Below, one piece after another: positions 7,935 to 64,000 of a stretch of DNA of 64,000 nt. Within the stretch, counting starts at the first letter, position 1; each line of letters begins with the position of its first letter. The notes under the pieces are model-generated. The model did not search any database. It was not told the DNA's origin and saw only the letters and a program-made list of their open reading frames with translations. Made by a program: the position numbers and the translations under genes. Where the stretch lies: positions 32,001 to 96,000 of the forward strand of contig JBAXAI010000010.1 in the NCBI GenBank assembly GCA_037142615.1, in the 5' to 3' direction. This DNA comes from Spirochaetales bacterium (GTDB lineage: Bacteria; Spirochaetota; Spirochaetia; JABEVK01).

Positions 7935-8993
7935 ATGGAACTAGGACTTTTCTCCTTTGGCGACTATTCGCCGGAACTCTTCGGTGACGACGCCGTGACC
8001 CCTGATCAGCGCGTGCGCAACCTCCTCGAAGAGATGGTACTCGCCGATCAGGTGGGCCTCGACTTTTTTGGACTGGGGGAGCACCACCGGCCAGACTTTT
8101 TGGTCAGCTCACCGGTAACGGTGCTCGCCGCCGCCGCCGTACTCACCAAGCGCATCCGCCTTTCGACCGCCGTGACCGTGATGAGCTCGGAAGACCCGGT
8201 GCGGGTGTTCCAGCAGTTTGCCACCCTCGACCAGCTTTCGAATGGCCGCGCCGAGATCATGGCGGGCCGGGGCAGCTTCATCGAAAGCTTCCCGTTGTTC
8301 GGGTACGACCTCGACGACTACGAAGAGCTGTTCACCGAAAAGCTCGACCTGCTGCTGGCGCTTACCAAGGGCGGCGAACACGTGCACTGGAAGGGCAGCG
8401 GCAAGTTCCGCGCTCCGCTCACCGGCCAGTCCATCCAGCCCCGCCCGGTGCAGAAGGAACTGCCGGTGATCATCGCCGTCGGTGGCAGTCCGGAATCGGC
8501 CGCCCGCGCAGGCACGCTGGGCCTTCCGCTGGCCATCGCCATCATCGGGGGCCAACCGGCGCGGTTCCAGCCGTTTGTCGACTACTACCGCGAAGCCGGA
8601 GCCAAGGCTGGGCACTCCCCCGACAAGCTGAAGGTGACCATCAACCAGCACGGTTTCTTGGCCGAAGACAGCCAGGCCGCCGCCGACCTCGTGTGGCCCA
8701 GCTATAAGCTCATGGTCGATAAGCTCGGCCGCGAGCGCGGTTGGCCGCCTCAGGGCCGCCCTCACTTTGAGCATGGGCGTGGCAAGTTTGGCCACCTGGT
8801 GGTCGGCAGCCCGCAAGAGGCCATCGACAAGATTTTGGCCGAGCACGAACTGTTCCACATGGACCGCTTCGCCATCCAGTTCACGGTGGGTGGCAGCCAC
8901 CACAAGGAAGTTCTGAAGTCGATCGAGCTGTTCGGCACGGTGGTGGCCCCGGCGGTGAAAAAGGCCCTGGGTACCGCACCGGTCGCGAAGTGA
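7935..8993 (+). CDS. Luciferase-like (LLM) flavin-dependent oxidoreductase
   Basis: GEHH, TKRIRLSTAVTV, DPVRVFQQFATLD, GRGSFIESFPLFG. Confidence 0.92.
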   Translation: MELGLFSFGDYSPELFGDDAVTPDQRVRNLLEEMVLADQVGLDFFGLGEHHRPDFLVSSPVTVLAAAAVLTKRIRLSTAVTVMSSEDPVRVFQQFATLDQLSNGRAEIMAGRGSFIESFPLFGYDLDDYEELFTEKLDLLLALTKGGEHVHWKGSGKFRAPLTGQSIQPRPVQKELPVIIAVGGSPESAARAGTLGLPLAIAIIGGQPARFQPFVDYYREAGAKAGHSPDKLKVTINQHGFLAEDSQAAADLVWPSYKLMVDKLGRERGWPPQGRPHFEHGRGKFGHLVVGSPQEAIDKILAEHELFHMDRFAIQFTVGGSHHKEVLKSIELFGTVVAPAVKKALGTAPVAK

Positions 8994-10039
8994 AACTGCT
9001 CGAGCCCTACCGACTGGGCGACCTGGACTTGCCCAACCGCGTGGTGATGGCCCCCATGACCCGCAACCGGGCCGTGGGCCAGGTGCAGCACCCGTGGGCC
9101 ATCGAGCACTACTCGGTGCGGGCGGCTGCGGGCTTAATCTTGAGTGAGTCGACGCAGGTTTCGGCCCGGGGCCAGGGCGCCTTCGACACGCCCGGCTTGC
9201 ACACCCCCGAGCAGACCGCCGCTTGGAAGGCCGTGGTCGACGCCGTTCACGCGGCCCAAGGTCCGGGGGCGGGCGGGCGGATCATGGCTCAACTGGGCCA
9301 CGCGGGGCGGCTGAGCCACTCCGACTACCAGGGTTTGCCACCGGTGGCCCCTTCGGCGGTCTTGCCTGCCGGTTTTGTGCGGACTCCTTTAGGCACCAAG
9401 AGTTATGAAGAGCCCTACGTTCCGACGGCAGCCGAAATCCCGGCGCTGGTCGAGGAGTTTGCCCACGCCGCCCGTTGTGCCCGTCAAGCGGGGTTCGACG
9501 GCGTTGAGTTGCACGGGGCCCACGGCTTTCTGCTCGACCAGTTTCTTCAAAGCGGCACCAACCAGCGGAGCGATGCCTACGGGGGCTCGGCCAAGAACCG
9601 CCGCCGGTTCGCGCTCGAAGTCGTCGAGGCCGTCAAGGGCGTGTGGCCGGCCGGCCGAATCGGGTTCACCGTCAGCCCCGGCGGCAACCACAAGGGCATT
9701 CACGACAGCGACCCGGTGACCACCTTCACCGAATTGGCCCAGGCTCTGTCGGCGGCCGGGCTGGGTTGGCTGCACGTGGCCAATCTGCCGTTGGGCGAGT
9801 TGTTCCCGAGCGAGTTCCTACGGCCGGTATTTCGGCGTACGTTGATTGTCAGCGAAGGCTACACCCGCGAAAGTGCGGAACTTGCAGTCACCCAGGGGAA
9901 CGCCGACTTGGTGGCTTTCGGCAAGGCGTTCACGGCCAATGCCGACTTGGTCGATAAGTTGCGGCGTGGTGATAGCCTCGAGCTGGCCGATCCCAAGACC
10001 TTCTACGCGGGCGGACGCACCGGGTACGTGGGCCCCTAG
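8990..10039 (+). CDS. Old yellow enzyme family alkene reductase (NemA-like)
   Basis: NRVVMAPMTR, AGFDGVELHGAHG, NQRSDAYGGS, FY..G..GY; GTGA overlap with the LLM gene. Confidence 0.92.
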   Translation: MKLLEPYRLGDLDLPNRVVMAPMTRNRAVGQVQHPWAIEHYSVRAAAGLILSESTQVSARGQGAFDTPGLHTPEQTAAWKAVVDAVHAAQGPGAGGRIMAQLGHAGRLSHSDYQGLPPVAPSAVLPAGFVRTPLGTKSYEEPYVPTAAEIPALVEEFAHAARCARQAGFDGVELHGAHGFLLDQFLQSGTNQRSDAYGGSAKNRRRFALEVVEAVKGVWPAGRIGFTVSPGGNHKGIHDSDPVTTFTELAQALSAAGLGWLHVANLPLGELFPSEFLRPVFRRTLIVSEGYTRESAELAVTQGNADLVAFGKAFTANADLVDKLRRGDSLELADPKTFYAGGRTGYVGP

Positions 10040-50972: not shown

Positions 50973-51788
50973 TTACACCCAGCGCTCCCGCAGCAATTCC
51001 ATCATGTGCACGTTGAGCTCCCACTGTTCGGCAACGGGTTGGGCCGTGTACGGGAGCGCCGGCATGTACGGCGCCGGGCCAAACTCGGGCGTCACGGTGA
51101 AGGTGGCAGCCCCGGCCTGCTGGTGACGTGTGAACACTTTGTCCCACCAAGTGAGGTGTGCCTCGACGGCCGGCTGCCACTCGGGAGCCCTGGGATCGCT
51201 CACCTGGGGGCCTTGGGCGTGACCCACCCGGGCGTGCAGGTGGTCGGTGCGTTCTATGGCCAGCGCCAGCGACTCGGCCTGGTCTTCAAGCAGCGATTCG
51301 GACACGTTGCACCAATGCGAAAAGTCGGCCGTGAGGCGCAGTTGCGGGTCGTCTCGCAAAAAACCGGCGGTGACGGCGGCCGCGTACGCGAACTTGGCCC
51401 TGTGGGTCTCGTGCACGATTTTGACACCGGTTTGAGCCGAAACCTCGGCCGCCACGTCGAGGATGCGGCGGTTGAGCTCGGCCGGGAACCAGTCCCTCCC
51501 CGTCTGCGAATTGATGAACAACGGCTTGGCGGCCGCAACCCACTCGAGGTGCGCCCGGTACTCGCGCAGGTGAGCCAGGGGGTCGGCCGTGGTCGTCTCC
51601 CAATGTTGGCCGATCAACTGTAGCCCCTGCGCTGCCAGCGCCCCGAGAATCTCCTCGGTGCCCTTGCGGTCGTCGAGCGGTAGGCTGCACTCGACCCCGT
51701 GGAAGCCCGCTTGGCGAACCTTGCGCGCAAAGTCTGCCCACGAAAGGCTTTCCGAGCCCCAGCGTGGGCAGAAGAACTGAAGTTCCAT
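50973..51788 (-). CDS. Sugar phosphate isomerase/epimerase-like TIM barrel (AP_endonuc_2)
   Basis: HETHR, TADFSHW, HLHARVG, TPEFGP metal-ligand pattern; starts 4 nt after the methyltransferase stop. Confidence 0.8.
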   Translation of the reverse strand: MELQFFCPRWGSESLSWADFARKVRQAGFHGVECSLPLDDRKGTEEILGALAAQGLQLIGQHWETTTADPLAHLREYRAHLEWVAAAKPLFINSQTGRDWFPAELNRRILDVAAEVSAQTGVKIVHETHRAKFAYAAAVTAGFLRDDPQLRLTADFSHWCNVSESLLEDQAESLALAIERTDHLHARVGHAQGPQVSDPRAPEWQPAVEAHLTWWDKVFTRHQQAGAATFTVTPEFGPAPYMPALPYTAQPVAEQWELNVHMMELLRERWV

Positions 51789-51792
51789 GGTG

Positions 51793-52869
51793 CTACTTCG
51801 ACCCGCAGCCGCAGGTGGTGAAGGCCATCACCTTGGCCATGATGGTCTTTTCGTAGCCCGGCATCGAGAGCACGTCGCATTCGCTGCCAATGATGAACGG
51901 GTGGCCCGAGGCTTTGAGTTTGCTTTCAATCTCGCACACCAGGTCGGGAATGCCGCTCAAGGGGACCTCTTCGTCGGAATAGAACTTCTTGGTAGGGAGG
52001 TTGCCGTACAGCACCGTCGTCTTGGGCACCAAGGGCTCGGCCTCCCACAGCTTGACCGGGCTGCCGAAGCTGATGATCACCGGGTCGAGCACCGCAAACG
52101 AGGCGATCATCTCGGGCGTGAGCGAGCCGCAGTCGTGGAAAATCAGGTCGGTGCCGTGCTGGTTGAACAACGCTTTGAGCCTCAGGTTGGGCTCGATGAC
52201 GAAGGTTTGGTACACGGTGCCACCCTCGGCAATCTGCTTGGGTGAAAAATACACGAGGTTGGCCGCGGGTTCGCACAAAAAGATGGCTTTGGCACCGGCC
52301 TTGATCTGCGCCAGCACGCAGGCGTGCACGGTCTTTTCGCACAGGTCCATCAGCGACGCCAGCAGCCCGACTTCGTCGTCGTCCTCGGGCGCGACACCAC
52401 TGCCCGCCATGTAGATGGGCGTGATGGGGTCTTTCATCAGCTTGGTCATCAGCGAGAACGGGCCGATGCTCATGCCGATGGGCACTTCCTTGCCCCCAGC
52501 CGCGAACGCCTTGGCAATCGCCGCCAGCGAGTCGCAGTTGGCCTTGATGCGCGGCGAGCCAAGCACATCCATGGCAGCCACCTTGGCCACCAACGCGGGG
52601 TCGGGCTTGTCGTGAAAATGGTAGGTGGGAATGGCGGCCGCCGCAACGCCCATGGTGCGCAGCATCACGTCTTTTTCGAGCGTGAGGTCCATGATGGGCA
52701 GCGCCAGCGGGCTATCGAAGCGGCGGGCGGTTTCGAGCATCACTTCGGCCAGGCGTTTGCCGTCGAGCAGAATGGCTTCGGGGTCCGATTTTTCGTGCAG
52801 GACGAGATGCGTCGCCACGGGCAACCGTTTTCCGGAAGCTGCGAGCGAGAGATAAAACGATCGGTCCAT
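51793..52869 (-). CDS. Uroporphyrinogen decarboxylase-fold corrinoid methyltransferase (MtaA/CmuA-like)
   Basis: GPFS, EPAA, Zn ligands FHDCG and SECD, LYGNL; follows the corrinoid protein. Confidence 0.8.
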   Translation of the reverse strand: MDRSFYLSLAASGKRLPVATHLVLHEKSDPEAILLDGKRLAEVMLETARRFDSPLALPIMDLTLEKDVMLRTMGVAAAAIPTYHFHDKPDPALVAKVAAMDVLGSPRIKANCDSLAAIAKAFAAGGKEVPIGMSIGPFSLMTKLMKDPITPIYMAGSGVAPEDDDEVGLLASLMDLCEKTVHACVLAQIKAGAKAIFLCEPAANLVYFSPKQIAEGGTVYQTFVIEPNLRLKALFNQHGTDLIFHDCGSLTPEMIASFAVLDPVIISFGSPVKLWEAEPLVPKTTVLYGNLPTKKFYSDEEVPLSGIPDLVCEIESKLKASGHPFIIGSECDVLSMPGYEKTIMAKVMAFTTCGCGSK

Positions 52870-52883
52870 GGGACGCTCCTTGG

Positions 52884-53516
52884 TCAGCTGACGAGTTCGA
52901 TGGCCTTGTCGCCAGCCGAAGCGGCGTCGGCCGTGTACGCGTCGGCTCCGATGCTGGCGCAGAAGCTGTCGGTGATGGGGGCACCACCGATCATCACCTT
53001 GACCTGCTTGCGCACGCCGGCGGCTTCGAGGGCTTCAATGACGGTCTTCATTTCGTTCATGGTGGTCGTCAACAGCGCCGAGAGCGCCACGATCTGGGGC
53101 TTGTGCTCGTGCACGGCAGCCACAAACTTTTCCGCCGAGACGTCGACGCCGAGGTCGATCACTTCGAGGCCTTTGCCTTCCATCATCATGCGCACCAGGT
53201 TCTTGCCGATGTCGTGCAGGTCGCCTTTGACGGTACCGAGAATCACCTTGCCGGTGGCTTTGACTCCGGCTGTCACCAAATAGGGCTTGAGCAGTGCGGT
53301 GCCCTGATTCATGGCGCGGGCGGCGATGAGCACTTCGGGCACGTAGACCTCGTTGCGCTTGAACTTGCCGCCGATGATGTTCATGCCGGCCATCAGGCCG
53401 TCTTCGAGAATGCTCTTGGCCGCAATGCCCTGGTCGATGGCCTGCTGCACCAGCTCTTTCACTTCTTTGGCTTTACCCTTCTGCAAGAAGGTGGAAATGT
53501 CGTCGAGAATTGCCAT
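52884..53516 (-). CDS. Corrinoid (B12-binding) protein, MtaC/MttC-like
   Basis: GDLHDIGKNLV (DxHxxG), SALLTTT, IGGAP; N-terminal four-helix cap. Confidence 0.95.
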   Translation of the reverse strand: MAILDDISTFLQKGKAKEVKELVQQAIDQGIAAKSILEDGLMAGMNIIGGKFKRNEVYVPEVLIAARAMNQGTALLKPYLVTAGVKATGKVILGTVKGDLHDIGKNLVRMMMEGKGLEVIDLGVDVSAEKFVAAVHEHKPQIVALSALLTTTMNEMKTVIEALEAAGVRKQVKVMIGGAPITDSFCASIGADAYTADAASAGDKAIELVS

Positions 53517-53551: not shown

Positions 53552-53604
53552 AGCTTAAAGCAAGCGGTGACTGCCGTATTGCACTCCCTTACGCTTTTTG
53601 GGAC
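53552..53604 (-). promoter_or_regulatory. Putative PocR-AraC operator/promoter of the corrinoid protein operon
   Basis: GTCCCAA-N13-GTGCAA-N21-TAAGCT. Confidence 0.75.
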
Positions 53605-54863
53605 AAATTGCGGTTCGTGAGCCAGGCTGCCAGGCCCGCCGTAGGCAAGACCACAGCCCGGCTGCGGAGTTTCTGGTACGCCGCCAAGCCGGGGCCGCCG
53701 GTAAAGTCGCGCAGGGCCATGGGTTGGTCTTCCAAAAGGACCAGTTCGCGGGCTTCGGCGGCCGCCTCGAGGTTGCGCAGGTTTTGGGCACCGACCACCA
53801 GGTTGCCGACGATCACCAGGTCGGCCTCGCGCACCAAACGGCAGTTGTCGGCGTGGGCCGTGTCGGAAAGGGGTGAGAACGGCGGCGAGACCACGCTGAC
53901 CAAGTCGTAGACGCCGGCCACGTACAGGTCGCTGTCGCCGGGGCTGAGCACACCGGTCGACACCTGAAAGTCACCTTCGGCCAGCTCGCGAAGCACCGCC
54001 GAGGCCGCCCCGCCGCCGCCGATCACGTGGATGCGGGGTGCCGTGAGGCCGGGGTCGGTTCCCCTCAAGTGAAAATCGAACTGACCGGTGGCAGGATTGA
54101 CGTACACCCGCACCTGAACTCCGTAAGCCGCCTCGAGGTTACCCGGCGTGAAAACCTCACTGGGGGTCCCTTGAGCCAGGACTCGGCCTTCGGCCAACAG
54201 CACAACCCGGGTGCAATACCGTGCGGCCAACCGCAAATCGTGCACGGCTGCCACGATGGTTTTTCCTTCGGCGGCCAGAGTTTGCGCGTAGCGGAAGGTC
54301 TGCTGCTGGTGGCTCAGGTCGAGGCTCGCGCTGGGCTCATCGAGCAGCAGCACCGGCGTTTGCTGCGCCAGCACCTTGGCAAACAGCACGCGCTGGCGCT
54401 CGCCGCCCGACATCTGGTCGAGGGGCTGCAACGCCAGCGCCTCGGTCGCGGTGAACGCCATGGCCTGGGCCACCGCGCGGCGGTCGGCGGCCGACTCCGG
54501 GCGAAAACGGCCCTGGTGGGGGTAGCGGCCCATCATCACCACGTCGGCGGCCGGGAACGACGAGGTCAGCGCCGTGTCCTGGTGCATCAGCGCCACCCGT
54601 AGCGCGATCTCGCGCGGCGGCAGGCCTCGCTGGGCCTGTGAAGTCAAAGGTTGGCCGAACACCTCTACCTGTCCTTCGAAGGGGATCAAGCCCGCCAAAC
54701 ATCGCAACAGCGTCGACTTGCCCGCACCGTTGGGTCCCAGGATGCCCAGAATCTCGCCGGGGAACACCTGCAGGTCGAGCCCCCGCAACACGGGTTTGTC
54801 GCCTAGGGAGCAATGCAGCCCTTGCACCGAAAGCGCGGGGCTCGAGACGCCTCCGGCGCTCAC
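53589..54863 (-). CDS. btuD: Cobalamin ABC ATPase with C-terminal extension
   Basis: GPNGAGKST, MSGGERQRV, LLDEP, HDL; extra domain IHVIGGGG...GDSD; GTGA overlap. Confidence 0.85.
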   Translation of the reverse strand: MSAGGVSSPALSVQGLHCSLGDKPVLRGLDLQVFPGEILGILGPNGAGKSTLLRCLAGLIPFEGQVEVFGQPLTSQAQRGLPPREIALRVALMHQDTALTSSFPAADVVMMGRYPHQGRFRPESAADRRAVAQAMAFTATEALALQPLDQMSGGERQRVLFAKVLAQQTPVLLLDEPSASLDLSHQQQTFRYAQTLAAEGKTIVAAVHDLRLAARYCTRVVLLAEGRVLAQGTPSEVFTPGNLEAAYGVQVRVYVNPATGQFDFHLRGTDPGLTAPRIHVIGGGGAASAVLRELAEGDFQVSTGVLSPGDSDLYVAGVYDLVSVVSPPFSPLSDTAHADNCRLVREADLVIVGNLVVGAQNLRNLEAAAEARELVLLEDQPMALRDFTGGPGLAAYQKLRSRAVVLPTAGLAAWLTNRNLSQKA

Positions 54864-55900
54864 AGAGTCCCTCCGCGCCGCACACTGCGCAACAGCAAGA
54901 ACAGGAAGTACGGCGCTCCCACCAGCGCGGTCACAATGCCCACGTTGATCTCTTGCGCGCCCAGAGCCATGCGGGCCACGAGGTCGCAGATCACCAGAAA
55001 CGCCGCGCCGCCGAGCGCTGCCGCCGGGACGAGCAGACGATGATCGGGACCCAACAACAAGCGCAGAATGTGCGGCACGATGAGGCCGACAAAGCTGATC
55101 GGCCCGCTGATGCAAACCGCCGAGGCCGTCACCGCCGACACCAGAACCAGCAGAATCAGGCGGGTACGGAACACATCGACGCCAACGGCCTGCGCTTCCT
55201 CTTCGCCCAGCAGCAGAACGTTCAGGTCGCGGGTGAACCACAGCAGCGCAAATACCCCGGTGCCGATGGGCAGAATCACGAGCCCCAGCGATTCCCAGCG
55301 CACGTTGTACAGGTTGCCCATCGACCAAAAGAGGAACTGCGCGATGCTGTCATGGCTGGCAAACGTGAGCACCAGCGACGTGCCGGCCCCGAAAAATGTG
55401 CTCACCGCGATACCGGCCAAAATGAGGGTGAACAGGCCCATTTTGCCGGCCCGAATGGCCAACACAAAAATGATTCCGGCGGCGGTGAGCGAACCCAGCG
55501 ACGCAAACACCGGCAACGCCCACGCGCTGGTGGCGGCAACCCCGAGAGCAATGCTGAGCACAGCGCCAAAACCCGCGCCGCTGGACACACCGATGAGTCC
55601 CGGGTCGGCCAGAGGATTGCGCAACAGGCCCTGCATCACCGTCCCCGCGACCGCCAACGCAGCACCGATCACCACGGCCCCGAGCACGCGAGGCAGGCGC
55701 ACCAGAAAAATGATGGCGTCCCACTTCTGGTCGGGAGGCGGCAACCATCCGGCGGGAAAGCCCAGCCGCGCCAAGATCACCCCGGCCGTGTCGCCCAGCG
55801 GCACCGACACCGACCCGATGGCCGTCGCCACAAGCACCAGCCCCAACAACGCCAACGTCAGAGGAAGCAGAATCCACCACGCCAGGCGGGGGGTATTCAT
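54860..55900 (-). CDS. btuC: Cobalamin ABC permease (FecCD family)
   Basis: RLPR, QGLLRNPLADP, GEEEAQAVGV, FVGLIVPH. Confidence 0.88.
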   Translation of the reverse strand: MNTPRLAWWILLPLTLALLGLVLVATAIGSVSVPLGDTAGVILARLGFPAGWLPPPDQKWDAIIFLVRLPRVLGAVVIGAALAVAGTVMQGLLRNPLADPGLIGVSSGAGFGAVLSIALGVAATSAWALPVFASLGSLTAAGIIFVLAIRAGKMGLFTLILAGIAVSTFFGAGTSLVLTFASHDSIAQFLFWSMGNLYNVRWESLGLVILPIGTGVFALLWFTRDLNVLLLGEEEAQAVGVDVFRTRLILLVLVSAVTASAVCISGPISFVGLIVPHILRLLLGPDHRLLVPAAALGGAAFLVICDLVARMALGAQEINVGIVTALVGAPYFLFLLLRSVRRGGTL

Positions 55901-55913
55901 CGCGGTAGCGGGC

Positions 55914-56861
55914 CTAGCGGAACAGCGCCGGGTAGCCGGCTTTGGCCAGGTCTTCCACCGCGTCGGCCATGTACTGACTGGTCGACTGCAGGTGCTTGTC
56001 TTGCATCACCAGCACCCGTTTGTTCTTGACGGCCTTGAGCCCAGCAAACACGGGGTCGGCCACAAAGTCGGCCAGAAACTTGGCCGCATCGCTGCTGCCG
56101 TCGTAGCTCCAGCTGGGCAACAGGATCACGTCGGGGTCGAGGGCCAACACCTGCTCTTTGCTCACCTGAGGCCAGCCGGACAGGCCAGCCTTGGTGGCGA
56201 CGTTCACCAGCCCGGCTTTTTCGATCAAAGCCTCAAAGCTGGTCCCTTTGGCGTAGGTGCTGCCCCAGAAGCTGTAACTGAGCACGGTGGGTTTGGCGGC
56301 GACGCCCTTGAGCTTGGTGGCCACTGCTGCCAGACGTTTTTCCACCGTGGCAAGCAAGGCCTTTCCCTTGGCGGTTTCACCGGTGACGGCCGCCATCTGG
56401 GTGACGAGCGTGGTCAGCTCGTCGAAATTGTCGGGCGTTTTGAACACGAACACCGGGATTTTGGCCTCGCGCAGGGCAGCGATGAACTCGGGTTCCTTCC
56501 AACTGGCCACGAACACGAGGTCGGGCTGCAACGCGATGATCTTTTCTTTTTCGCCGGCGATTTTGGTGGGAAAGGCCTTGGCCCAGGCAGCGATGTTGGA
56601 AATGCCCGCGTCGGTGGCGAAACTGTCGATGGCCTTGATGCGGCTCTGGTCGACCAGTTCGATGAGGATTTCGTCGGTGGGCAACGTGAGCGAAATGATG
56701 GCCTTGGGAGCGGCGGACAAGGTGATGGCCGTGCCTTGCGCATCCTTGAGCGTGAGCGGGAAAACCTTGTCGGTCGCCCCGGTGCCGGCGGCATTGAGGC
56801 CGACAAGGGTTGTGAGCAGCAGGGACGACAACGCGACCCGGCGCAACAGGTGAGAACTCAT
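55914..56861 (-). CDS. btuF: Cobalamin ABC substrate-binding protein
   Basis: Peripla_BP_2 (TDEIL, EKIIALQPDLV, KEQVLALDPDVI, LKAVKNKRV); downstream of a B12 riboswitch. Confidence 0.88.
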   Translation of the reverse strand: MSSHLLRRVALSSLLLTTLVGLNAAGTGATDKVFPLTLKDAQGTAITLSAAPKAIISLTLPTDEILIELVDQSRIKAIDSFATDAGISNIAAWAKAFPTKIAGEKEKIIALQPDLVFVASWKEPEFIAALREAKIPVFVFKTPDNFDELTTLVTQMAAVTGETAKGKALLATVEKRLAAVATKLKGVAAKPTVLSYSFWGSTYAKGTSFEALIEKAGLVNVATKAGLSGWPQVSKEQVLALDPDVILLPSWSYDGSSDAAKFLADFVADPVFAGLKAVKNKRVLVMQDKHLQSTSQYMADAVEDLAKAGYPALFR

Positions 56862-57594: not shown

Positions 57595-58140
57595 TCAAAT
57601 GCTTTGCGGGAAGTGAGTTAGCAGACAACTCGTGAACGTCACCGTGAGAGAGCCATGGTTGTAGGGGATGCCGTTGGCCTCGCACACTTGGCTGACGAAC
57701 AGCCCGTAAGCCTCCATCGACACGATGGCCTTATCGGGAAAACGGCATGGTTCCGCCGGGCACGGACATTCGGCGCAAAGCGTGCAGGCCCCGGCGCCCA
57801 TGGGCAAACAGTGGGGTACCGTTCCACGCACGTCGCCCACCAACTGGTGAAACCGTTGGTTGTGCAGGGCTTGCGCCGCCTCCATGGACTCGTAGTCGAA
57901 GTCGTCATCAAGCTTGCCGACCGTTTGCACCAGAATGCCCCGCTCGAAGGCAGCCACCTTCCGGGTAGACTCGTCGAGCGTGCCGCAATGGGGCGGGCAG
58001 GTCCAGTTTTTGCCATAGCTGCGGCAGGTGTTGGCGGCGCACATGGAGCGCACCTCGGGCAGAAACTTGAGCGTGGCGACGCTTAGTTCGCCGGCGTCTT
58101 CGAAGCCGTGGTCGCGGGCGAGTTGCAAAAGGGCGGTCAT
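57595..58140 (-). CDS. DUF2284 Cys-rich metal-binding protein
   Basis: C..N.C..YGKNWTCPP, GAGACTLCAEC, CRFP, SMEAYG. Confidence 0.85.
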   Translation of the reverse strand: MTALLQLARDHGFEDAGELSVATLKFLPEVRSMCAANTCRSYGKNWTCPPHCGTLDESTRKVAAFERGILVQTVGKLDDDFDYESMEAAQALHNQRFHQLVGDVRGTVPHCLPMGAGACTLCAECPCPAEPCRFPDKAIVSMEAYGLFVSQVCEANGIPYNHGSLTVTFTSCLLTHFPQSI

Positions 58141-58454
58141 TCCTTGCTGATCCGCATCACCACGTCCTTGGGGAGCGCGAGGACGCAAGCCACTTCGATG
58201 CCTTTGAGGATGGCTGCCGGGACGGGGCAGGCGGCGTGGTGGCAGTGAAGCCTCGCCGCCTTGGCCACCGTCGAACTACCCCATTTGCCGAGCACTTCGG
58301 TATAGCCATCGAGTTCCTGCAGGTCGGCCTCCATGGCCTTAATGGCCTCGCAGTCGGAGGTGAGGCTGACTTTGACCTGCAGGTCGTCATCGGCGACGGC
58401 CGTGATTTCGGTGGTGAACCCGCAGATTCCAGGTTCAACGTGCACGTGTGCCAT
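58137..58454 (-). CDS. DUF6951 family protein
   Basis: PGICGF, SDC, HCHHAACPVPAAILKGIEVA..LALP. Confidence 0.75.
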   Translation of the reverse strand: MAHVHVEPGICGFTTEITAVADDDLQVKVSLTSDCEAIKAMEADLQELDGYTEVLGKWGSSTVAKAARLHCHHAACPVPAAILKGIEVACVLALPKDVVMRISKE

Positions 58455-58465
58455 GGACTTCTCCT

Positions 58466-59668
58466 TTACGACCCACCGGCTTGTTGGTTTCCCGCTTGCC
58501 GGAACTTGCCCGGCGACTGGCCGGTGACTTTCTTGAACACCCGGTTGAAGTAGCTTTGGTCCTCAAACCCGACCAGACCCGCGACGACCACCAAGGGGAT
58601 GGAGCGGTCGGCCAGCAGGCGTTTGCTTTTTTCGATGCGCACGTCGCTCAAAAAGGCGACAAAACTGGTCTTGAGCTCTTCTTTGAACACCCGGCTGAAA
58701 TAGCTGGGGCTCAGGTACACCTGCGCGGCCACCGCTTCGAGCGACAGTTTTTGCGCGTAGTTCAGCCGGATGTAGCGCACGGCCTTCTGGATGATGTCGG
58801 CGTGCTTGACGGCCTTGAGCACGAACATGCAGTCGGCGAAGCGGCGCACCACGCGCGCCAAAATGGTCTCGAGGTCATCGATGCTGCGGGCCAACTGAAG
58901 GCGCTGCATCCAGTTCTCGCTGATACCGAACACCTCTTCGGCCGACGCGCCGCCCTCGACCGCCGCCCGAGAAAGCAACACCAGCAACTCTTGCGCCCGC
59001 AGGCGCACGGTGGCGATCTTTTGACCTGAGAAGAAGAACACGTGGCCCAAAATGTCGTTCACCAGCGCGCGGGCTTCGTCGTGGTTGCCGTTCGAAAGCA
59101 GAGCGATGAGCTCTTTTTCTTTTTCGAACGGGTACGTGGGCGGAAGTTCGGCGCCGGTGTCGGGGTACCAACTGGTGGGCCTTTGCAACGGCTGGGGCTC
59201 GGCTTCGGGCGCCAGTCGGTGGCGCAGTTCGGCCACCAGGCGGTAGAGCACCTCGGCGAGCGCCGTCGCACGCGCGGGCTGCAGGTAGGGAACCAGACGC
59301 AGCTCGTCTTCCAACTGATCCAACCCTTTGAGCTTGAGGTCGGTAAGCATTTCCTCGGGTTCCAGCAGCAGAACTGGGCCGCCAACCACCACCGCTTGGA
59401 CTTCGGCGTTCACAGTCAACGGTATAGACCAATGGAGCAAATTGTTGGGGCAAAAGTAGATGTACTTGCCACCGAAGCGCTCGGCCTGGTAGGCGCCGTA
59501 CTGGTGGGCCTTGCTGCACTCCGACCGGTGCCCGGGCAGAGCGTGCTGCATAGCGCGGCAAAACCGGCACCCCCCCGCTTGGCCGAGCTGGTCCTTGTCA
59601 AACACTTGGCAGTCGACGCCGCAGGCTTCGCGGTAACTGCGAACCAGGTTCTCCAGTTCAGTCGTCAT
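58466..59668 (-). CDS. PocR ligand-binding domain + AraC HTH regulator
   Basis: CRFC...C...YFCPNNL...VVGGPVL (PocR cysteines); YLSPSYFSRVFK, GFEDQSYFNRVFKK. Confidence 0.9.
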   Translation of the reverse strand: MTTELENLVRSYREACGVDCQVFDKDQLGQAGGCRFCRAMQHALPGHRSECSKAHQYGAYQAERFGGKYIYFCPNNLLHWSIPLTVNAEVQAVVVGGPVLLLEPEEMLTDLKLKGLDQLEDELRLVPYLQPARATALAEVLYRLVAELRHRLAPEAEPQPLQRPTSWYPDTGAELPPTYPFEKEKELIALLSNGNHDEARALVNDILGHVFFFSGQKIATVRLRAQELLVLLSRAAVEGGASAEEVFGISENWMQRLQLARSIDDLETILARVVRRFADCMFVLKAVKHADIIQKAVRYIRLNYAQKLSLEAVAAQVYLSPSYFSRVFKEELKTSFVAFLSDVRIEKSKRLLADRSIPLVVVAGLVGFEDQSYFNRVFKKVTGQSPGKFRQAGNQQAGGS

Positions 59669-61247
59669 CACCGGGATCCTCCGGGAACAGCATAGCCTCG
59701 GCGAAAGCCATTTGGAACTCGGGTTCGGCCGAAAGATCGACGGCGGCGGTGGCCTTGGCAATGGCCAGGGCCCGGTCGAGGGCCAGCGGCTCTGCAAGTA
59801 CAGCGAGCGCTCCCTTGAGCGCGGTGTTGCCCGAGGGCACCACTTTCCCCCGAAGGGCTTGCGGAAGCAGACCAATGGCAAGCGCCGACGCCGGCCGCAA
59901 AAAGGTTCCAAAGCCGCCAGCCAGGTGCACGCGCGAAATCTGCTCCAGGGCGACGGCGCTCTTGAGGCACAGAACTTCGATGCCGGCGGCGATGGCCCCC
60001 TTGGCCAGCTGCAGCTGACGGATATCGGCCTGGCTGAGGCACACCGGCGAGGCGGCGTCGGGGAAGAAATCGTCGCCTTCAGCCAGCTCCAGATACCCGG
60101 TTTCGTCGAGTTGGCCGCCCCGACGGAGGGCGGCCGCCAGGTCGAGCAGGCCCGAGCCGCAGATGCCGGTCAGGGGCTTGTCGCCAATCGTGGTGTACCA
60201 AAACTCGCCGGCCGTATCACCGGTGGCCGAGGTCCAGCCCGCATGGTCGAGCGCTCCGGGTACGCCGGGACAGCCGTGGGCAATCTGCGCGCCTTCGAAG
60301 GCCGGGCCGGCGGCGGTGGCTGTGGACTTCATTCCGTGGCGGTTGCCGAGCACCATTTCGCCGTTGGTACCGATATCGAGCAGCAGCTCCAACTCTTCGG
60401 CCTGGTCGAGCCCGGTGGCAAGCACCCCGGCCGTGAGGTCGGCCCCCACAAACGCCGAAATGCCGGGCAGAAGTTGCACGGTGCAAGTGGCAGGAAGCGC
60501 AAGGCCCAACGACGGAGCAGGCGTGACTCTCGGCTCCAGAAACACCGGCCGGAAGGGAACCCTGGCCATGCCCGTGGGATCGGCCCCGGCGAACAGGTGT
60601 AGCATCACGGTGTTGCCCGCGACCACGATCCCATCGAGCTCCGAAGGCATGCGCCCGGCGGCGTCGAGCTGCTCGGTGATCAAGTTTTGGATCTGCCCCG
60701 CGACCGCGCGACGCATGGCCTCGAGGGCCTCGGGGTGATCGATCACCGACTGGATGCGCGCCACCACGTCGGAACCCCAGGTTTTTTGGGCGTTGGCGGC
60801 GGTGCGCACCGAAAGCACCCGGCTGGCGGCCACATCGACCAGGGCGACTGCCAGGGTGGTGGTACCGATATCGACCGCCACGCTCAGCGGTCGGCCCGAA
60901 GTTTGGGCGGCGGCACGCAGCGCCGGGTCAACGTCAATCGTCAACTGCTCCTGCGGCACGGCGATGCCGTCGTCCCCCGCAGCCAGTTCCACCCACCCTT
61001 CATGCTCAAAACGCGCCAAGCACGCCAAACGCACACCGCGAGCCCGCTCGACCTCGCTCAGGTGACGCAGTTCCAGCGGGTCCGCGAGGCTCAACGGCGA
61101 GGCAGCGACCGCGGAAGAGGGACAGACCTCGACGCGGCACTTGCCGCACGAGCCTCGGCCCGCGCAGGGAGCCCTCAAAGCGTGATCGTTCCCCCGAAGC
61201 ACTTCGAGGAGGGTCTGGCCGGCCTGGCCGTGGACGCGAAGGTTCAT
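59658..61247 (-). CDS. Reductive activator of corrinoid enzymes (RACE/RACo, ASKHA ATPase with 2Fe-2S domain)
   Basis: CAGRGSCGKC...RLAC, DIGTTT, GSDVVARI, FVGAD, DIGTNGE, AGPAFEG, GICGSG, LAGGFG. Confidence 0.93.
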   Translation of the reverse strand: MNLRVHGQAGQTLLEVLRGNDHALRAPCAGRGSCGKCRVEVCPSSAVAASPLSLADPLELRHLSEVERARGVRLACLARFEHEGWVELAAGDDGIAVPQEQLTIDVDPALRAAAQTSGRPLSVAVDIGTTTLAVALVDVAASRVLSVRTAANAQKTWGSDVVARIQSVIDHPEALEAMRRAVAGQIQNLITEQLDAAGRMPSELDGIVVAGNTVMLHLFAGADPTGMARVPFRPVFLEPRVTPAPSLGLALPATCTVQLLPGISAFVGADLTAGVLATGLDQAEELELLLDIGTNGEMVLGNRHGMKSTATAAGPAFEGAQIAHGCPGVPGALDHAGWTSATGDTAGEFWYTTIGDKPLTGICGSGLLDLAAALRRGGQLDETGYLELAEGDDFFPDAASPVCLSQADIRQLQLAKGAIAAGIEVLCLKSAVALEQISRVHLAGGFGTFLRPASALAIGLLPQALRGKVVPSGNTALKGALAVLAEPLALDRALAIAKATAAVDLSAEPEFQMAFAEAMLFPEDPGDDD

Positions 61248-61253
61248 CGTCAC

Positions 61254-61306
61254 AGCCTAGCGCCCGCCGCGCGGACTGTCTTGCACATTGGCTTTATTCT
61301 TGGGAC
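61254..61306 (-). promoter_or_regulatory. Putative PocR-AraC operator/promoter of the RACE operon
   Basis: GTCCCAA-N13-GTGCAA-N21-TAGGCT-N6-ATG. Confidence 0.75.
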
Positions 61307-62313
61307 TTTTCGGGCAAGGTCGGCACGTAGATGTAGCCCGGATCGGTTTTCTGTTTTTTGCGGATTTCGAACAAGAGCCTCAGCCCGGCCCAGAGGCTTT
61401 TCTGGCTCGGGGGCAGATCGTAGGCAATGGCCCGGTGCAGCTTACCCTCGTTGTAGCACGGGACGGCCGCGTACATGTGGTGCGCGGTGTGATAGTTCAT
61501 GTTCCAGTACAACCATCGGGTGATGGGGCCACCGGTGAACGAATGGCACACCAGCCGCCAGTCGGGGGTGCTGTCGCCCAGACCGGTGTGCTGCATGGCC
61601 CCGCAGAGTTTGCCGTACCAGCTGGCAAAGAACACCCCAAAGGTCACCAGGTAGATGAGCACCCAGAGTTGAAAGTAAATGAAGACTCCCAGCAGGATCA
61701 GATGGCTGAGCAGCATGAATCTCGCCCACCCCACCATTTGCCCTCGGCGCTTGTCGCCCTTCTCAAACAGGGGATTCCAAAAGAAGTAGTCCGCGTCGGC
61801 TTTACCGAAGGTGTGCATCACCGCCAAACCGAACCACGACCGAAACTGAGTCCAGTCAAAGGTGAACCACTGCAGCAGGTTCCAGAAGTTCAGTTTGTCT
61901 TTCACCGGGCCCTGCACGACTTCCTTGTCGGGGTCCTTGAACACCGTCAGTTGGTGATGCAGCCCGTGGCTGGCGCGAAAGTGGACGGGGTTGTTCCAGG
62001 TCATCCAGCAGAACAAATGGTAGAAAAATTCGTTCAGGGCCTTGGTCTTGAACATGGTGCCGTGGCTGAGTTCGTGAACCCCGGCGGCCATGCTGAAGAA
62101 CATGAGGAAGGTCGAGTGGACGTAGCAGGCGACGACCATGGGCACCCACATCTGATTGACAAAGAAATAGAGCGCAGCCGATATCGTGACGACCCAGCCC
62201 AGCAGAAAGCTCAGCGTCTTGCGTAGCCCCTTGAAGTCGCTCTTGGTGGCCAGCTCCTTGAGCAGCGCCTTGTCGACCGGAGTCCGGTACCACTCGATTT
62301 TTTTGGGATCCAT
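61294..62313 (-). CDS. Membrane di-iron oxygenase, fatty-acid-desaturase superfamily, MocD (rhizopine oxygenase)-like
   Basis: His boxes HELSH, HGLHH, QH, NYHTAHH; WYRTPV...SD N-terminus and LYWNMNYH resemble MocD. Confidence 0.8.
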   Translation of the reverse strand: MDPKKIEWYRTPVDKALLKELATKSDFKGLRKTLSFLLGWVVTISAALYFFVNQMWVPMVVACYVHSTFLMFFSMAAGVHELSHGTMFKTKALNEFFYHLFCWMTWNNPVHFRASHGLHHQLTVFKDPDKEVVQGPVKDKLNFWNLLQWFTFDWTQFRSWFGLAVMHTFGKADADYFFWNPLFEKGDKRRGQMVGWARFMLLSHLILLGVFIYFQLWVLIYLVTFGVFFASWYGKLCGAMQHTGLGDSTPDWRLVCHSFTGGPITRWLYWNMNYHTAHHMYAAVPCYNEGKLHRAIAYDLPPSQKSLWAGLRLLFEIRKKQKTDPGYIYVPTLPEKSQE

Positions 62314-62347: not shown

Positions 62348-64000
62348 CTAGGCCGTCTTGAACTTCTGGATGGCGCCGTCCAGGTTGCCCGCAATCACTC
62401 CAATGCCGTCGGCCTGCTCCGACACCTGACGGATGGTTCCCGAGATGTCGCTCAGGCCGGTGCCGATTTCGCCGATGTTCGAAACCACCTCTTGCGACAC
62501 GCGCCGAACCTCTCCCATCACCTTTTGAACGGCTCCGCTGGATTGCAGAACCTGAACGGCTTCTTCGGTGATCTTGAGAGAACCCGACTTGAGTTCGCTC
62601 ATCGCCTCGAGCACATGCTGACTCCCCACTTGCATCTCATTCACATTGCCATGGATTTCGCGAACCGAGCGGCTGACTTCGCCAATCCGCCTCGTGATCA
62701 CCTCAAAGGCCTGACTCGTCGTTTCGCGGGTACTGCCAGCCTCTTTCATCTTGCTCAGAATCGTGCGGATGACTCGGGCTATGTCGTCGGAGCTGGTTCG
62801 GGCGGCCTGGGCCAGCTTGGTGATTTCGTCGGCGACCACCGCGAAACCTTTGCCAAACTCTCCGGCGTGCGCAGCCTCGATGGCGGCGTTCATGGCTAGA
62901 ATCTGGGTCTGGCCGGCGATGCCCGAAATTACGTCGGCCATCTCTTGAATCGACCCGACACTCTCGGTGATTTCAGCCACTTTTTCAAAGGCCGCATTGA
63001 AGACCTCGCGACCGCCATCCGCCTCGCGCACCAAGCTTTCGGCCGACCTCTGGTCGCGCTCGGTAAGCAGCGAGATGTTGCCGATCGAGGTGAGCACCTG
63101 GGTCACCGAGCCCACGGAATCCTCGACAAGCGAATTCTGATTCCGGATGGCCAGAGTGAACCGGTCCAAGGCACCCAGAATGTTGTCCATGTCGGACGAA
63201 GACACAGCAATCATGTGGTCCATGGTTTCCATCTGCGAACGAATCGACGACGAGTTGGCCTCGATCTCGACTGAAGAACTGGAGGCTTCGGTTACGGCCC
63301 TGACCAGTTCCTCCCTGAGCGCCAGGTTGTGCCGGGAGGCCTGCTGAATCGTCGACAACGAACCATTCAAACTGTCGAGCAGATCGTCGAGCTTACGCCC
63401 CAGAATTCCGATCTCGTCGCGCCGTTTGAGCCGAAGGCGCTGAGTGAAGTCGCCCGCACTCATCAAAGTGATGTTTTTGTCGACGGCGCGAAACGATAGC
63501 GTGATGCTCCTTGTGAGCGAAAGCGACAGGGTCAAAGTGACAACAAGAAGCAGAATCACCGCTCCAAGACTGATCCAGGTTGCCCTTGACTGCAAGGCGC
63601 TGACTTCGCCAAAAATGACGGCGTCTTTTTCCTTGATGACCTTCACAGTCGTGACAAACAGATCATTGAGGTTCGTTAAGTTGTTAAGCAGGGAACCCGT
63701 GTGGAACATGGCCAACCCGCTGGTGTCGTCGGTATTCTTGAGCAGATTGACGACAATGAAGTCGTCCGAAACCCCTTGGTAAAGTTCCTTGGCGTCGGCT
63801 TCCAAGTCGGCCAAGTTCCCCGCAACCTGCTCGAGCCCGTCGGCCGAAAGGGAACCCAAGTCCTTCACAGCGGTCACGGCCTGCTTGAGAGTCTCGCTGA
63901 CCGTGGGCAACAGGGTTACGGTGTCCATTTCTTTCAAAGCAAGCTGAAAGTTGGCGACCGAATCGCGGAACCTCTTCACTTGCGTTTCAAACCCCGAAGT
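62348..64000 (-). CDS. Methyl-accepting chemotaxis protein (5' end beyond the window)
   Basis: TM helix, HAMP (RRDEIG), ILAMNAAIEAAHAGEFGKGFAVVADEI. Confidence 0.93.
   Translation of the reverse strand, partial: TSGFETQVKRFRDSVANFQLALKEMDTVTLLPTVSETLKQAVTAVKDLGSLSADGLEQVAGNLADLEADAKELYQGVSDDFIVVNLLKNTDDTSGLAMFHTGSLLNNLTNLNDLFVTTVKVIKEKDAVIFGEVSALQSRATWISLGAVILLLVVTLTLSLSLTRSITLSFRAVDKNITLMSAGDFTQRLRLKRRDEIGILGRKLDDLLDSLNGSLSTIQQASRHNLALREELVRAVTEASSSSVEIEANSSSIRSQMETMDHMIAVSSSDMDNILGALDRFTLAIRNQNSLVEDSVGSVTQVLTSIGNISLLTERDQRSAESLVREADGGREVFNAAFEKVAEITESVGSIQEMADVISGIAGQTQILAMNAAIEAAHAGEFGKGFAVVADEITKLAQAARTSSDDIARVIRTILSKMKEAGSTRETTSQAFEVITRRIGEVSRSVREIHGNVNEMQVGSQHVLEAMSELKSGSLKITEEAVQVLQSSGAVQKVMGEVRRVSQEVVSNIGEIGTGLSDISGTIRQVSEQADGIGVIAGNLDGAIQKFKTA

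Follow-up and report, generated by a model that had tools for sequence, protein, structure and literature searches.

A putative membrane di-iron oxygenase related to MocD in a sugar and B12 gene island of a Spirochaetales bacterium

Introduction

Why would a gene for an apparently O2-dependent oxygenase lie directly next to a gene for a corrinoid reductive activase? This question is raised by a stretch of 64,000 nucleotides of a Spirochaetales genome (assembly GCA_037142615.1, contig JBAXAI010000010.1, positions 32,001 to 96,000 of the forward strand), hereafter referred to as the window. Near its end, a gene for a desaturase-superfamily protein, here termed DES, is located between a gene for a methyl-accepting chemotaxis protein (MCP) and a gene for an activase of the RACE type. 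An initial annotation had likened DES to the rhizobial protein MocD and proposed that oxic and anoxic demethylation of the same sugar or cyclitol are paired at this site. The reading that we favour, with a probability of roughly 45%, is that DES may be a rubredoxin-fed, O2-dependent hydroxylase or O-demethylase acting on an imported methylated sugar or cyclitol. The evidence that leads to this reading, and the alternatives to it, are presented below.

DES is a complete His-box protein

The DES open reading frame (ORF) encodes a product of 339 amino acids, starting with an ATG at position 62313 that is preceded 6 nt upstream by AAGGAGAA. A longer, TTG-started frame (to 62394) was rejected: it overlaps the upstream gene, and homologues instead begin at the MDPKK/WYRT region. 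DES matches the Pfam family PF00487 (FA_desaturase) with an E-value of 2.3e-28 and 100.1 bits over profile positions 3-249 of 253; the score lies well above the cut-off of 29.7. The three His boxes, HELSH (residues 80-84), HGLHH (116-120) and HTAHH (275-279), occur unchanged in all 34 homologues of the alignment and fit the superfamily pattern HX3-4H, HX2-3HH, HX2-3HH, i.e. eight iron-ligand histidines. Other motifs are WYRT (8-11), SD (25-26), HELSHGTMFKTKALN (80-94) and YWNMNYHTAHHM (269-280). Two long hydrophobic hairpins, spanning residues 33-79 and 193-236, are apparent from hydropathy. An AlphaFold2 model computed from the homologue alignment has a pLDDT of 87.4 and a pTM of 0.88 and, when compared with solved structures, resembles FtAlkB (Z 13.2, rmsd 4.2 over 270 residues) and SCD1 (Z 5.9).

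The ORF, the PF00487 match, the three invariant boxes, the hairpins and the model together indicate that the initial annotation was correct in describing a complete desaturase-superfamily protein with all its His boxes. Judged from its sequence, DES is most likely an integral-membrane, O2-dependent di-iron monooxygenase. Other searches added little: a scan of DES against NCBIfam gave only a weak match to GntB (31 bits, for a cut-off of 380), which was not used, and a search of the ESM Atlas returned only generic “fatty acid desaturase” clusters. The top structural matches of the model, above FtAlkB and SCD1, are 8xks_K and 8xqw_M (Z 19.8 and 18.9), a desaturase-like chain in the Orf2971/Ycf2-FtsHi import-motor complexes of the Chlamydomonas chloroplast.

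DES belongs to a sister clade of MocD

The claim that DES resembles MocD more than a lipid desaturase was borne out by pairwise scores, plasmid searches and trees. Aligned with the MocD-like protein of R. johnstonii 3841 pRL11, DES scores 150 bits with 30% identity over the full length, and the two share the motifs WY.T, HE..HGT.FKT and YWNMNYH..HHM; with a Priestia desaturase, the gene of which adjoins cold-shock genes, the score is 46.6 bits and the identity 23%. Upstream of the pRL11 gene are a LacI and a TIM-barrel gene, and downstream of it are genes annotated as “MocE family 2Fe-2S type ferredoxin” and FAD-dependent oxidoreductase. A tblastn search of plasmids with DES yielded 287 records at E<=1e-3, mostly from Rhizobium and Sinorhizobium, with full-length matches at about 30% identity and E-values down to 3e-39. 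When the E limit was raised to 10, MocD-like plasmid genes were found at 1e-25 to 1e-39, compared with 1e-3 or worse for annotated lipid desaturases of Ralstonia, Priestia, Streptomyces and Mycobacterium.

In a careful IQ-TREE tree (50 rows, mixture model), two clades are well separated. The first, with support of 99/95, is a Rieske-type clade containing the pRL11 gene, a gene of Burkholderia RPE67, marine metagenome genes and the genome's own paralogue on contig C7 (see below). The second, here termed clade X, has support of 96/99, and the union of the two 94/89. Trees of 119, 83 and 50 rows agree in placing DES in clade X, sister to the Rieske-type clade (one row, L043, was dropped because of an internal stop), and in all of them DES is separate from the three annotated acyl-lipid desaturases included, each a long branch, clustering with which would have spoken against a MocD-like role. 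The phylogeny thus agrees with the earlier view in that DES groups with MocD-type genes, and departs from it in that DES falls in a sister clade, not in the MocD-proper clade. By these trees, DES is not a MocD orthologue but a member of clade X.

Clade X is a widespread, uncharacterised family. Its members are found in many phyla, including Spirochaetota, Verrucomicrobiota, Planctomycetota, Chloroflexota, Poribacteria, Latescibacterota and Gemmatimonadota. In a library of 1.84 billion representatives, 1494 DES relatives were detected at E<=1e-3, and at least 93 clusters at 50% identity pass the stricter limit of E<=1e-30.

DES is embedded in a sugar and B12 island

DES is part of a 26-kb island of genes on one strand, which covers the end of the window and a stretch beyond it. 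The first half of this minus-strand run consists of genes for a rhamnose mutarotase, a URO-D-like protein, an ABC ATPase, a pair of permeases and, at C10:96251-97438, a Peripla_BP_4 binding protein, followed by MCP and DES; the sugar ABC importer is of the CUT2 type. After DES come RACE, a PocR-AraC regulator, DUF6951, DUF2284, a BtuFCD-like uptake system, a corrinoid protein, an MtaA-like methyltransferase and a TIM barrel (Table 1). In NCBIfam, the RACE protein is AcsV/RamA-like, below the cut-off. The remainder of the window encodes rhamnose and fucose isomerases, an aldolase, kinases, a mutarotase, sugar transporters and regulators. As had been noted earlier, MocE and MocF are missing: the scanned part of the window contains neither Rieske nor MocF-like genes.

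Table 1. Features of the minus-strand run around DES, in window coordinates
Feature	Position	Strand	Basis
DES, FA_desaturase-superfamily membrane di-iron His-box oxygenase (predicted), MocD-sister clade X	61294..62313	minus	PF00487, His boxes, trees
Methyl-accepting chemotaxis protein (MCP)	62348..64000, past window end; full ORF 617 aa	minus	MCPsignal + HAMP
RACE/RACo-type corrinoid reductive activase (Fer2 + RACo middle + ASKHA)	59658..61253	minus	PF14574 E 4.4e-60, PF17651, PF00111
PocR-sensor AraC-family regulator	58466..59680	minus	PF10114 PocR, HTH_18/HTH_AraC
DUF6951 small Cys-rich protein	58137..58454	minus	PF22263 E 3.8e-34
DUF2284 predicted metal-binding protein	57595..58188	minus	PF10050 E 6.2e-46
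BtuFCD-like ABC uptake (binding protein, FecCD permease, ATPase)	53589..56861	minus	PF01497, PF01032, PF00005
Corrinoid protein	52884..53516	minus	PF02310, PF02607
MtaA-like URO-D family methyltransferase	51793..52869	minus	PF01208 E 4.6e-14; HxCG motif in alignment
Xylose-isomerase-like TIM barrel	50973..51788	minus	PF01261 E 5.2e-07, 30.0 bits, below 31.1-bit cut-off

The junctions within the run are short. From the DES stop (61294-61296) there are 40 nt to the GTG of RACE at 61253 and 46 nt to its conserved ATG at 61247, while 34 nt separate the MCP stop from the DES start. The initial annotation had placed the operator of the RACE operon over the last codons of DES; this was not upheld. 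There are no inverted repeats in the gaps between MCP, DES and RACE, the DES-RACE gap being free of repeats of >=8 nt, and the sole such repeat within 61150-61400 (at 61212-61229) lies inside RACE. Promoter-like or terminator-like sites were likewise not found between the three genes on the minus strand. A stretch of 17 nt that follows the DES stop is also kept in the 94% orthologue (two sequences compared), and this motif has 3 matches in the window versus 2.25 expected, i.e. not beyond chance. The simplest reading of these junctions is that MCP, DES and RACE are co-transcribed.

Further O2-dependent enzymes are encoded elsewhere in the window and beyond its end. Outside the window, 11-13 kb beyond DES (contig C10:104814-107161), a PF04116 FA_hydroxylase-family gene is divergent from a gene for a URO-D-like protein of 432 amino acids and is followed by a frame of LacI plus a further URO-D-like part, probably two genes; an AraC gene also lies beyond the window end, near the PF04116 gene. 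PF04116 is another family of membrane His-box oxygenases, and the island thus pairs an oxygenase with URO-D a second time. At window positions 7935-10036 (plus strand), a luciferase-like monooxygenase is found beside an OYE-type NADH:flavin oxidoreductase.

URO-D-like genes recur near clade X genes

To compare neighbourhoods, 88 clade X loci were used, i.e. 80 from the genome collection, seven from metagenomes (L088-L094) and the window; L087, identical to the window, was left out. The MocD-proper set comprised 32 metagenome loci (L095-L126). Neighbours were counted with small home-built HMMs on six-frame ORFs and by Pfam scans of flanking ORFs, which replaced a single-linkage clustering of neighbour ORFs that was polluted by antisense ORFs of high-GC DNA. 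Flank lengths differ among loci, so that all locus counts are lower bounds.

URO-D-like genes were found within about 8 kb at 15 of the 88 clade X loci (9 of the 20 in the window's Spirochaetota subclade) versus none of the 32 MocD-proper loci, a difference with a Fisher p of 0.01 in which related loci are not independent; a partial URO-D gene at a contig end in L056 raises the clade X count to 16/88. Parsimony on the 119-row tree requires 14 changes for these 16 rows, indicating that the URO-D link was made or lost many times and not inherited once; for RACE, it requires 3 changes for 4 rows. RACE is near the clade X gene at 4/88 loci in three lineages (near-identical strains and two distant ones), and a corrinoid protein at 3/88. 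LacI genes are present at 12/88 clade X versus 17/32 MocD-proper loci and GFO/IDH/MocA genes at 13/88 versus 11/32; PhyH and sulfatase genes accompany 23 and 13 of the 88 clade X loci, respectively. A tblastn search of the 80 genome loci with window proteins detected RACE in two and the corrinoid protein in two (L011, L027), and neither MCP nor the MtaA-like protein in any.

Among individual loci, L087 (100% identity) and L088 (94%) keep MCP, DES, RACE and PocR, and L088 also DUF6951. L091 (75%) encodes an MCP unrelated to that of the window, an AraC regulator with a binding-protein domain, RhaM and DES, and L092 (73%) a sugar ABC transporter, a binding protein and DES, with convergent LacI/URO-D. 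At greater distance, L011 (Spirochaetaceae, 49%) assembles within 9 kb, in a different order, DES, LacI, a TIM barrel, URO-D, PocR-AraC, DUF1638, RACE and a corrinoid protein. L027 (Terrimicrobiaceae, 39%) has a corrinoid protein, a PF02574 methyltransferase, an MtaA-like URO-D, DES, a second URO-D-like gene, two AraC genes and RACE. Adjacency of DES to corrinoid genes in other genomes, on which the idea of paired chemistries leans, is therefore seen in L011, L027 and the near-identical strains; adjacency to RACE is lost already at 90% identity (L089), and 84 of the 88 loci are without RACE. A xylose-isomerase-like TIM barrel adjoins the DES relatives in L011, L021 and L046, as it does the rhizobial MocD-like gene.

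A Pfam scan of the two nearest ORFs per side at the 80 genome loci (213 non-redundant of 288) yielded many sugar-related products: GH2, GH3, GH20, rhamnosidases, RhaM, sulfatases, glucuronyl esterase, GFO, TIM barrels, LacI/AraC and transporters. Lipid-leaning neighbours were found at 5 of these 80 loci, none of them in the window's lineage.

DES is patchily distributed among relatives. In 61 related genomes, DES-like genes (E<=1e-20) were detected in 6 and RACE in 26, and within the window's family (12 genomes) full DES and RACE occur only in G000 and G001. Co-occurrence of the two genes in the 61 relatives, which had been proposed as a check, tends in the expected direction (RACE in 4 of 5 genomes with full DES versus 22 of 56 without it) and is too weak to bear weight (Fisher p 0.15, with kin not independent). 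A genome of the same genus carries a fragment of 110 amino acids (G002:C16:77585-77884) with 64% identity to DES residues 237-336, and RACE was not matched in this genome; the fragment looks like what is left of an island that has been lost.

Three further arrangements were observed. In an uncultured Spirochaetales genome (L013:9130-12471), the DES relative is immediately followed by genes for a PFL-like glycyl-radical enzyme and its radical-SAM activase and is preceded by two URO-D-like genes, so that O2-sensitive and O2-requiring enzymes are adjacent. On plasmid p1 of Burkholderia sp. RPE67 (L132, 935556-942518), the order LacI, MocD-like, Rieske and convergent MCP places a chemoreceptor beside a MocD-type oxygenase outside spirochaetes. 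Finally, seven loci (L033, L047, L049, L051, L058, L060 and L080) from Latescibacterota, Gemmatimonadota and unclassified genomes share a syntenic block of an aldo-keto reductase, a PhyH dioxygenase, a sulfatase, an alpha/beta hydrolase, a DES relative, an enolase-superfamily enzyme and a GFO oxidoreductase, which looks like a sulfated-sugar catabolic set.

Rubredoxin as a candidate electron donor

MocD is accompanied by a ferredoxin and a reductase; what could feed electrons to DES? A MocE-type Rieske gene lies within the flanks of none of the 88 clade X loci versus 24 of the 32 MocD-proper loci. With the MocF-like protein of pRL11, tblastn gave no match in the 80 genome loci and, in the metagenome loci, matched only L120, a MocD-proper locus. 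More can be learned from fusions: of 17 longer DES relatives scanned, eight consist of the desaturase domain alone and nine are fusions, two with rubredoxin, rubredoxin reductase and Rbx_binding, three with rubredoxin, three with Rieske and one with Rieske and an FNR-like reductase. All five rubredoxin fusions are in clade X and all four Rieske fusions in the Rieske-type clade. One of the natural fusions is a protein of 818 amino acids.

Near DES relatives, no rubredoxin ORF of >=35 aa was detected at any of 120 loci. The genome has exactly one rubredoxin, a canonical, stand-alone protein of 54 amino acids encoded on contig C3 in a housekeeping setting. A predicted complex of DES with this rubredoxin scored 0.21 and 0.24 against a mark of 0.32, with controls not folded, which speaks neither for nor against binding. 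The fusions suggest that clade X enzymes probably draw on rubredoxin as AlkB does, DES doing so via the cell's stand-alone rubredoxin. The Fer2 domain of RACE was also considered as a donor and dropped, there being no support for it and no RACE at 84/88 clade X loci.

Corrinoid and respiratory genes of the genome

The genome (4.27 Mb, 60.8% GC, 76 contigs) contains three PF00487 genes, and both paralogues of DES are in loci of glycoside hydrolases and sugar transport. One, C7:20498-21490, has 40% identity to the pRL11 MocD-like protein and is abutted by a gene for a Rieske ferredoxin of 103 amino acids with 46% identity to MocE. This pair (C7:20160-21490, minus strand), surrounded by GH4, a sugar ABC transporter, a Cache-AraC regulator, a ROK kinase, SIS/RpiR and GH63-like genes, is by sequence the genome's true mocDE-like pair. 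The other, C7:3191-4189, adjoins a GFO/IDH/MocA oxidoreductase and is near GH63-like, GH20 and GH38 genes; URO-D-like and MttB-family (trimethylamine methyltransferase superfamily) genes are also nearby (C7:1256-11993), with no corrinoid protein in the vicinity. The earlier remark that, apart from the 2Fe-2S domain of RACE, nothing ferredoxin-like is encoded near DES holds for the window but is misleading; the genome as a whole also has the MocE-like Rieske protein on C7 and the rubredoxin on C3.

There are two genes with B12-binding domains in the genome, that of the window's corrinoid protein and a frame of 1250 amino acids presumed to be methionine synthase, which leaves the former as the only methyltransferase-type B12-binding protein. 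Genome-wide, we found one strong RACE match (that of the window), seven URO-D-like genes, five of them on the DES contig, and one MttB-like gene. The window module thus looks like a corrinoid hub that several substrate-specific methyltransferases share. Since the genome encodes cytochrome bd and a COX1-type oxidase, it is reasonable to describe the organism as facultative or micro-aerobic. A search for IolB/KduI gave two matches, on other contigs, and was uninformative as to inositol catabolism.

Proposed function of DES and alternatives

A role on an imported compound is our best guess because DES is embedded between a sugar importer and chemoreceptor on one side and a corrinoid activase on the other; the rhamnose-type context of the nearest DES orthologues points in the same direction. 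Given the precedent of MocD, the most likely chemistry is oxidative O-demethylation. In the mechanism that we propose, the importer would bring in a methylated sugar or cyclitol, and DES would hydroxylate a methyl C-H on it. In the case of an O-methyl group, hydroxylation would produce a hemiacetal that falls apart into free sugar and formaldehyde, as proposed for MocD acting on 3-O-methyl-scyllo-inosamine. DES would operate when O2 is present and the corrinoid/URO-D system would demethylate without it. In this scheme we infer the electron donor, the substrate class, the demethylation and the division of labour with the B12 system.

The idea of paired oxic and anoxic demethylation put forward in the initial annotation is strengthened by the O2 respiration genes, by the recurrence of URO-D (16/88 versus 0/32) and by the corrinoid sets of L011 and L027; it is weakened by the rarity with which RACE adjacency is kept and by the placement of DES in a sister clade without MocE/MocF. 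The locus hints at two demethylation chemistries side by side but does not prove them. Extended to the whole of clade X, the proposal would be that these are rubredoxin-fed membrane di-iron O-demethylases of methylated sugars or cyclitols, wired to URO-D/corrinoid methyltransferases in facultative bacteria so that demethylation can proceed with or without O2; this generalisation is tentative and, on balance, rather unlikely to hold in full.

A number of observations weigh against the role that we favour for DES. A search of PDB sequences with a DES profile gave no match at E up to 10, AlkB included. The rubredoxin fusions form a 99/96 subclade of clade X beside a Kiritimatiellales gene, i.e. 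a subclade other than that of DES, and rubredoxin is present in 5/5 related genomes checked, including G002, which has only the DES fragment; since rubredoxin also occurs there without an intact DES, its presence is not discriminating. As for the trees, the outgroup consisted of three annotated lipid desaturases (Priestia, Streptomyces, Ralstonia), all long branches, and MocD was represented by the pRL11 homologue in place of the canonical protein of S. meliloti L5-30 or R. leguminosarum. As for context, in G001 full DES and RACE are on different contigs, and in L089 (90% identity) the RACE adjacency is gone: the gene order is LacI, URO-D-like and DES, with overlapping ends, beside DUF6951 and cobalamin salvage genes (CobD, CobQ/CobT-like, BtuR) and ahead of NamZ, GH3 and an oligopeptide-type ABC transporter. 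Overlap of URO-D and DES in one operon argues for joint rather than alternative use of the two enzymes. More generally, clade X contexts are heterogeneous, many of the 213 flanking ORFs being unrelated to sugars and most clade members being in varied contexts without corrinoid genes, and the closest genome-collection relatives, L001-L006 (50-58% identity), have housekeeping or lipid-leaning neighbours and no sugar or B12 context.

The alternative that survives best, which we nevertheless regard as unlikely, is that DES belongs to the same sugar pathway and catalyses another reaction, hydroxylating or desaturating a C-H of the sugar or cyclitol itself (such as the methyl group at C6 of a 6-deoxyhexose) or acting on the product of URO-D, in series with the methyltransferases. 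The overlapping URO-D and DES genes of the L089 operon, and their direct adjacency in L009, L014, L027, L045, L055 and L059, would suit such a series, and so would the occurrence of genes for rhamnose mutarotase or rhamnosidase close to DES, both in the island of the window and in L014, L091, L025 and L036. AlkB, the best-matching solved enzyme of known reaction (Z 13.2), hydroxylates terminal methyl groups. Against this alternative stands MocD, an O-demethylase and the one protein in the wider group for which a reaction has been proposed. Nor is a hydroxylation step obviously needed, as the window already encodes the usual isomerases, kinases and aldolase of rhamnose and fucose breakdown.

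Could DES instead be a membrane-lipid desaturase or hydroxylase that lies between MCP and RACE by chance? Its Pfam family is named for fatty acid desaturases, its relatives are annotated “fatty acid desaturase”, it is an integral membrane protein by prediction, and the lipid-related neighbours at 5/80 loci include a ceramidase-like gene (L002), DegV/FakA (L003), GDSL lipases (L007 and L048) and PagL (L074). However, the three annotated lipid desaturases are set apart from DES by sequence comparison and trees, the 213 flanking ORFs scanned include no fab, ACP or pls genes, and the distribution is patchy (6/61 related genomes, with 2 full copies among the 12 family genomes). In addition, the four loci of the closest orthologues for which neighbours are available (L088, L089, L091 and L092) all show tight, operon-like packing with sugar or corrinoid genes. 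We therefore consider a lipid role improbable.

That DES serves the corrinoid system, consuming O2 near the O2-sensitive Co(I) proteins or modifying a cofactor or ligand that they need, and does not act on the growth substrate, is far-fetched: DES is directly upstream of RACE with no terminator between, and the L089 operon adjoins cobalamin salvage genes and DUF6951, but 84/88 clade X loci are without RACE and 85/88 without a corrinoid protein nearby, many clade X genomes have the gene in sulfatase, PhyH or GFO contexts without B12 genes, and we know of no precedent that could be named.

Comparison with known systems

Demethylation by MocDEF reportedly goes back to Bahar et al. 1998 and 2000. 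Four papers describe MocDEF as a ferredoxin-containing oxygenase system by which 3-O-methyl-scyllo-inosamine is turned into scyllo-inosamine (PMC10107442, PMC5132102, PMC13434037, PMC2593844). MocD, represented here by the pRL11 protein, is like DES in superfamily, in wider clade (94/89) and in shared motifs. MocD-proper and clade X loci also have neighbours of the same kinds (LacI, xylose-isomerase-like TIM barrel, GFO/IDH/MocA, and an MCP in Burkholderia RPE67), and O-demethylation of a methylated cyclitol, as proposed for MocD, would fit the context of DES. Unlike MocD, the clade of DES has no nearby Rieske or reductase gene, shows rubredoxin in place of Rieske fusions and has recurrent URO-D-like neighbours.

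AlkB (FtAlkB, PDB 8SBB) resembles DES in having a membrane di-iron His-box monooxygenase fold, to which the model aligns with a Z of 13.2. In AlkB systems, as in clade X, there are fusions to rubredoxin and to rubredoxin plus its reductase. AlkB has six helices, DES two hydrophobic hairpins. By PDB profile search the two have no detectable sequence relation, and the context of DES is one of sugars, not alkanes. Acyl-lipid desaturases of the Priestia/Bacillus Des type belong to the same Pfam family and have the same His-box architecture, but are distant (23% identity, 46.6 bits, long branches in all trees).

An enzyme unrelated by family would be the functional analogue. Marine Bacteroidota reportedly use a P450, with its ferredoxin and reductase, as 6-O-methyl-D-galactose demethylase (PMC6292453, PMC10033563). 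This enzyme and DES would have in common the O2-dependent removal of a sugar O-methyl group as formaldehyde and a setting in polysaccharide-use loci. The P450 is a soluble haem enzyme, whereas DES is a predicted membrane di-iron protein for which demethylation is putative. In the literature library searched, nothing relevant was found on desaturase-like enzymes that demethylate sugars or on corrinoid-dependent sugar demethylases.

Methyl ethers on sugars block ordinary glycolytic processing. Among oxidative sugar demethylases, our literature searches brought up just one that has been characterised, the P450, and a corrinoid route without O2 is still a hypothesis. If clade X enzymes are O-demethylases of sugars or cyclitols, a function could be given to a large family now called “fatty acid desaturase”, a name that is probably wrong in many phyla that degrade polysaccharides, with rubredoxin named as the likely donor of clade X, and clade X would become a second O2-dependent sugar-demethylase family besides the P450 type. 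DES and the URO-D/corrinoid gene sets would then be a pair suited to testing oxic versus anoxic demethylation in one organism. If DES performs ordinary lipid chemistry, the finding is of little interest.

Expression and habitat

Two metatranscriptome runs of one study contain short Logan contigs that match DES, RACE and the corrinoid protein gene with no or few mismatches, among them a 157-nt RNA-library contig that matches DES 61689-61845 without a mismatch. The contigs leave most of the stretch uncovered and may stem from DNA carry-over, so that they give a weak hint that DES is transcribed. In DNA, the DES stretch is present in lake and freshwater metagenome runs of 9 studies.

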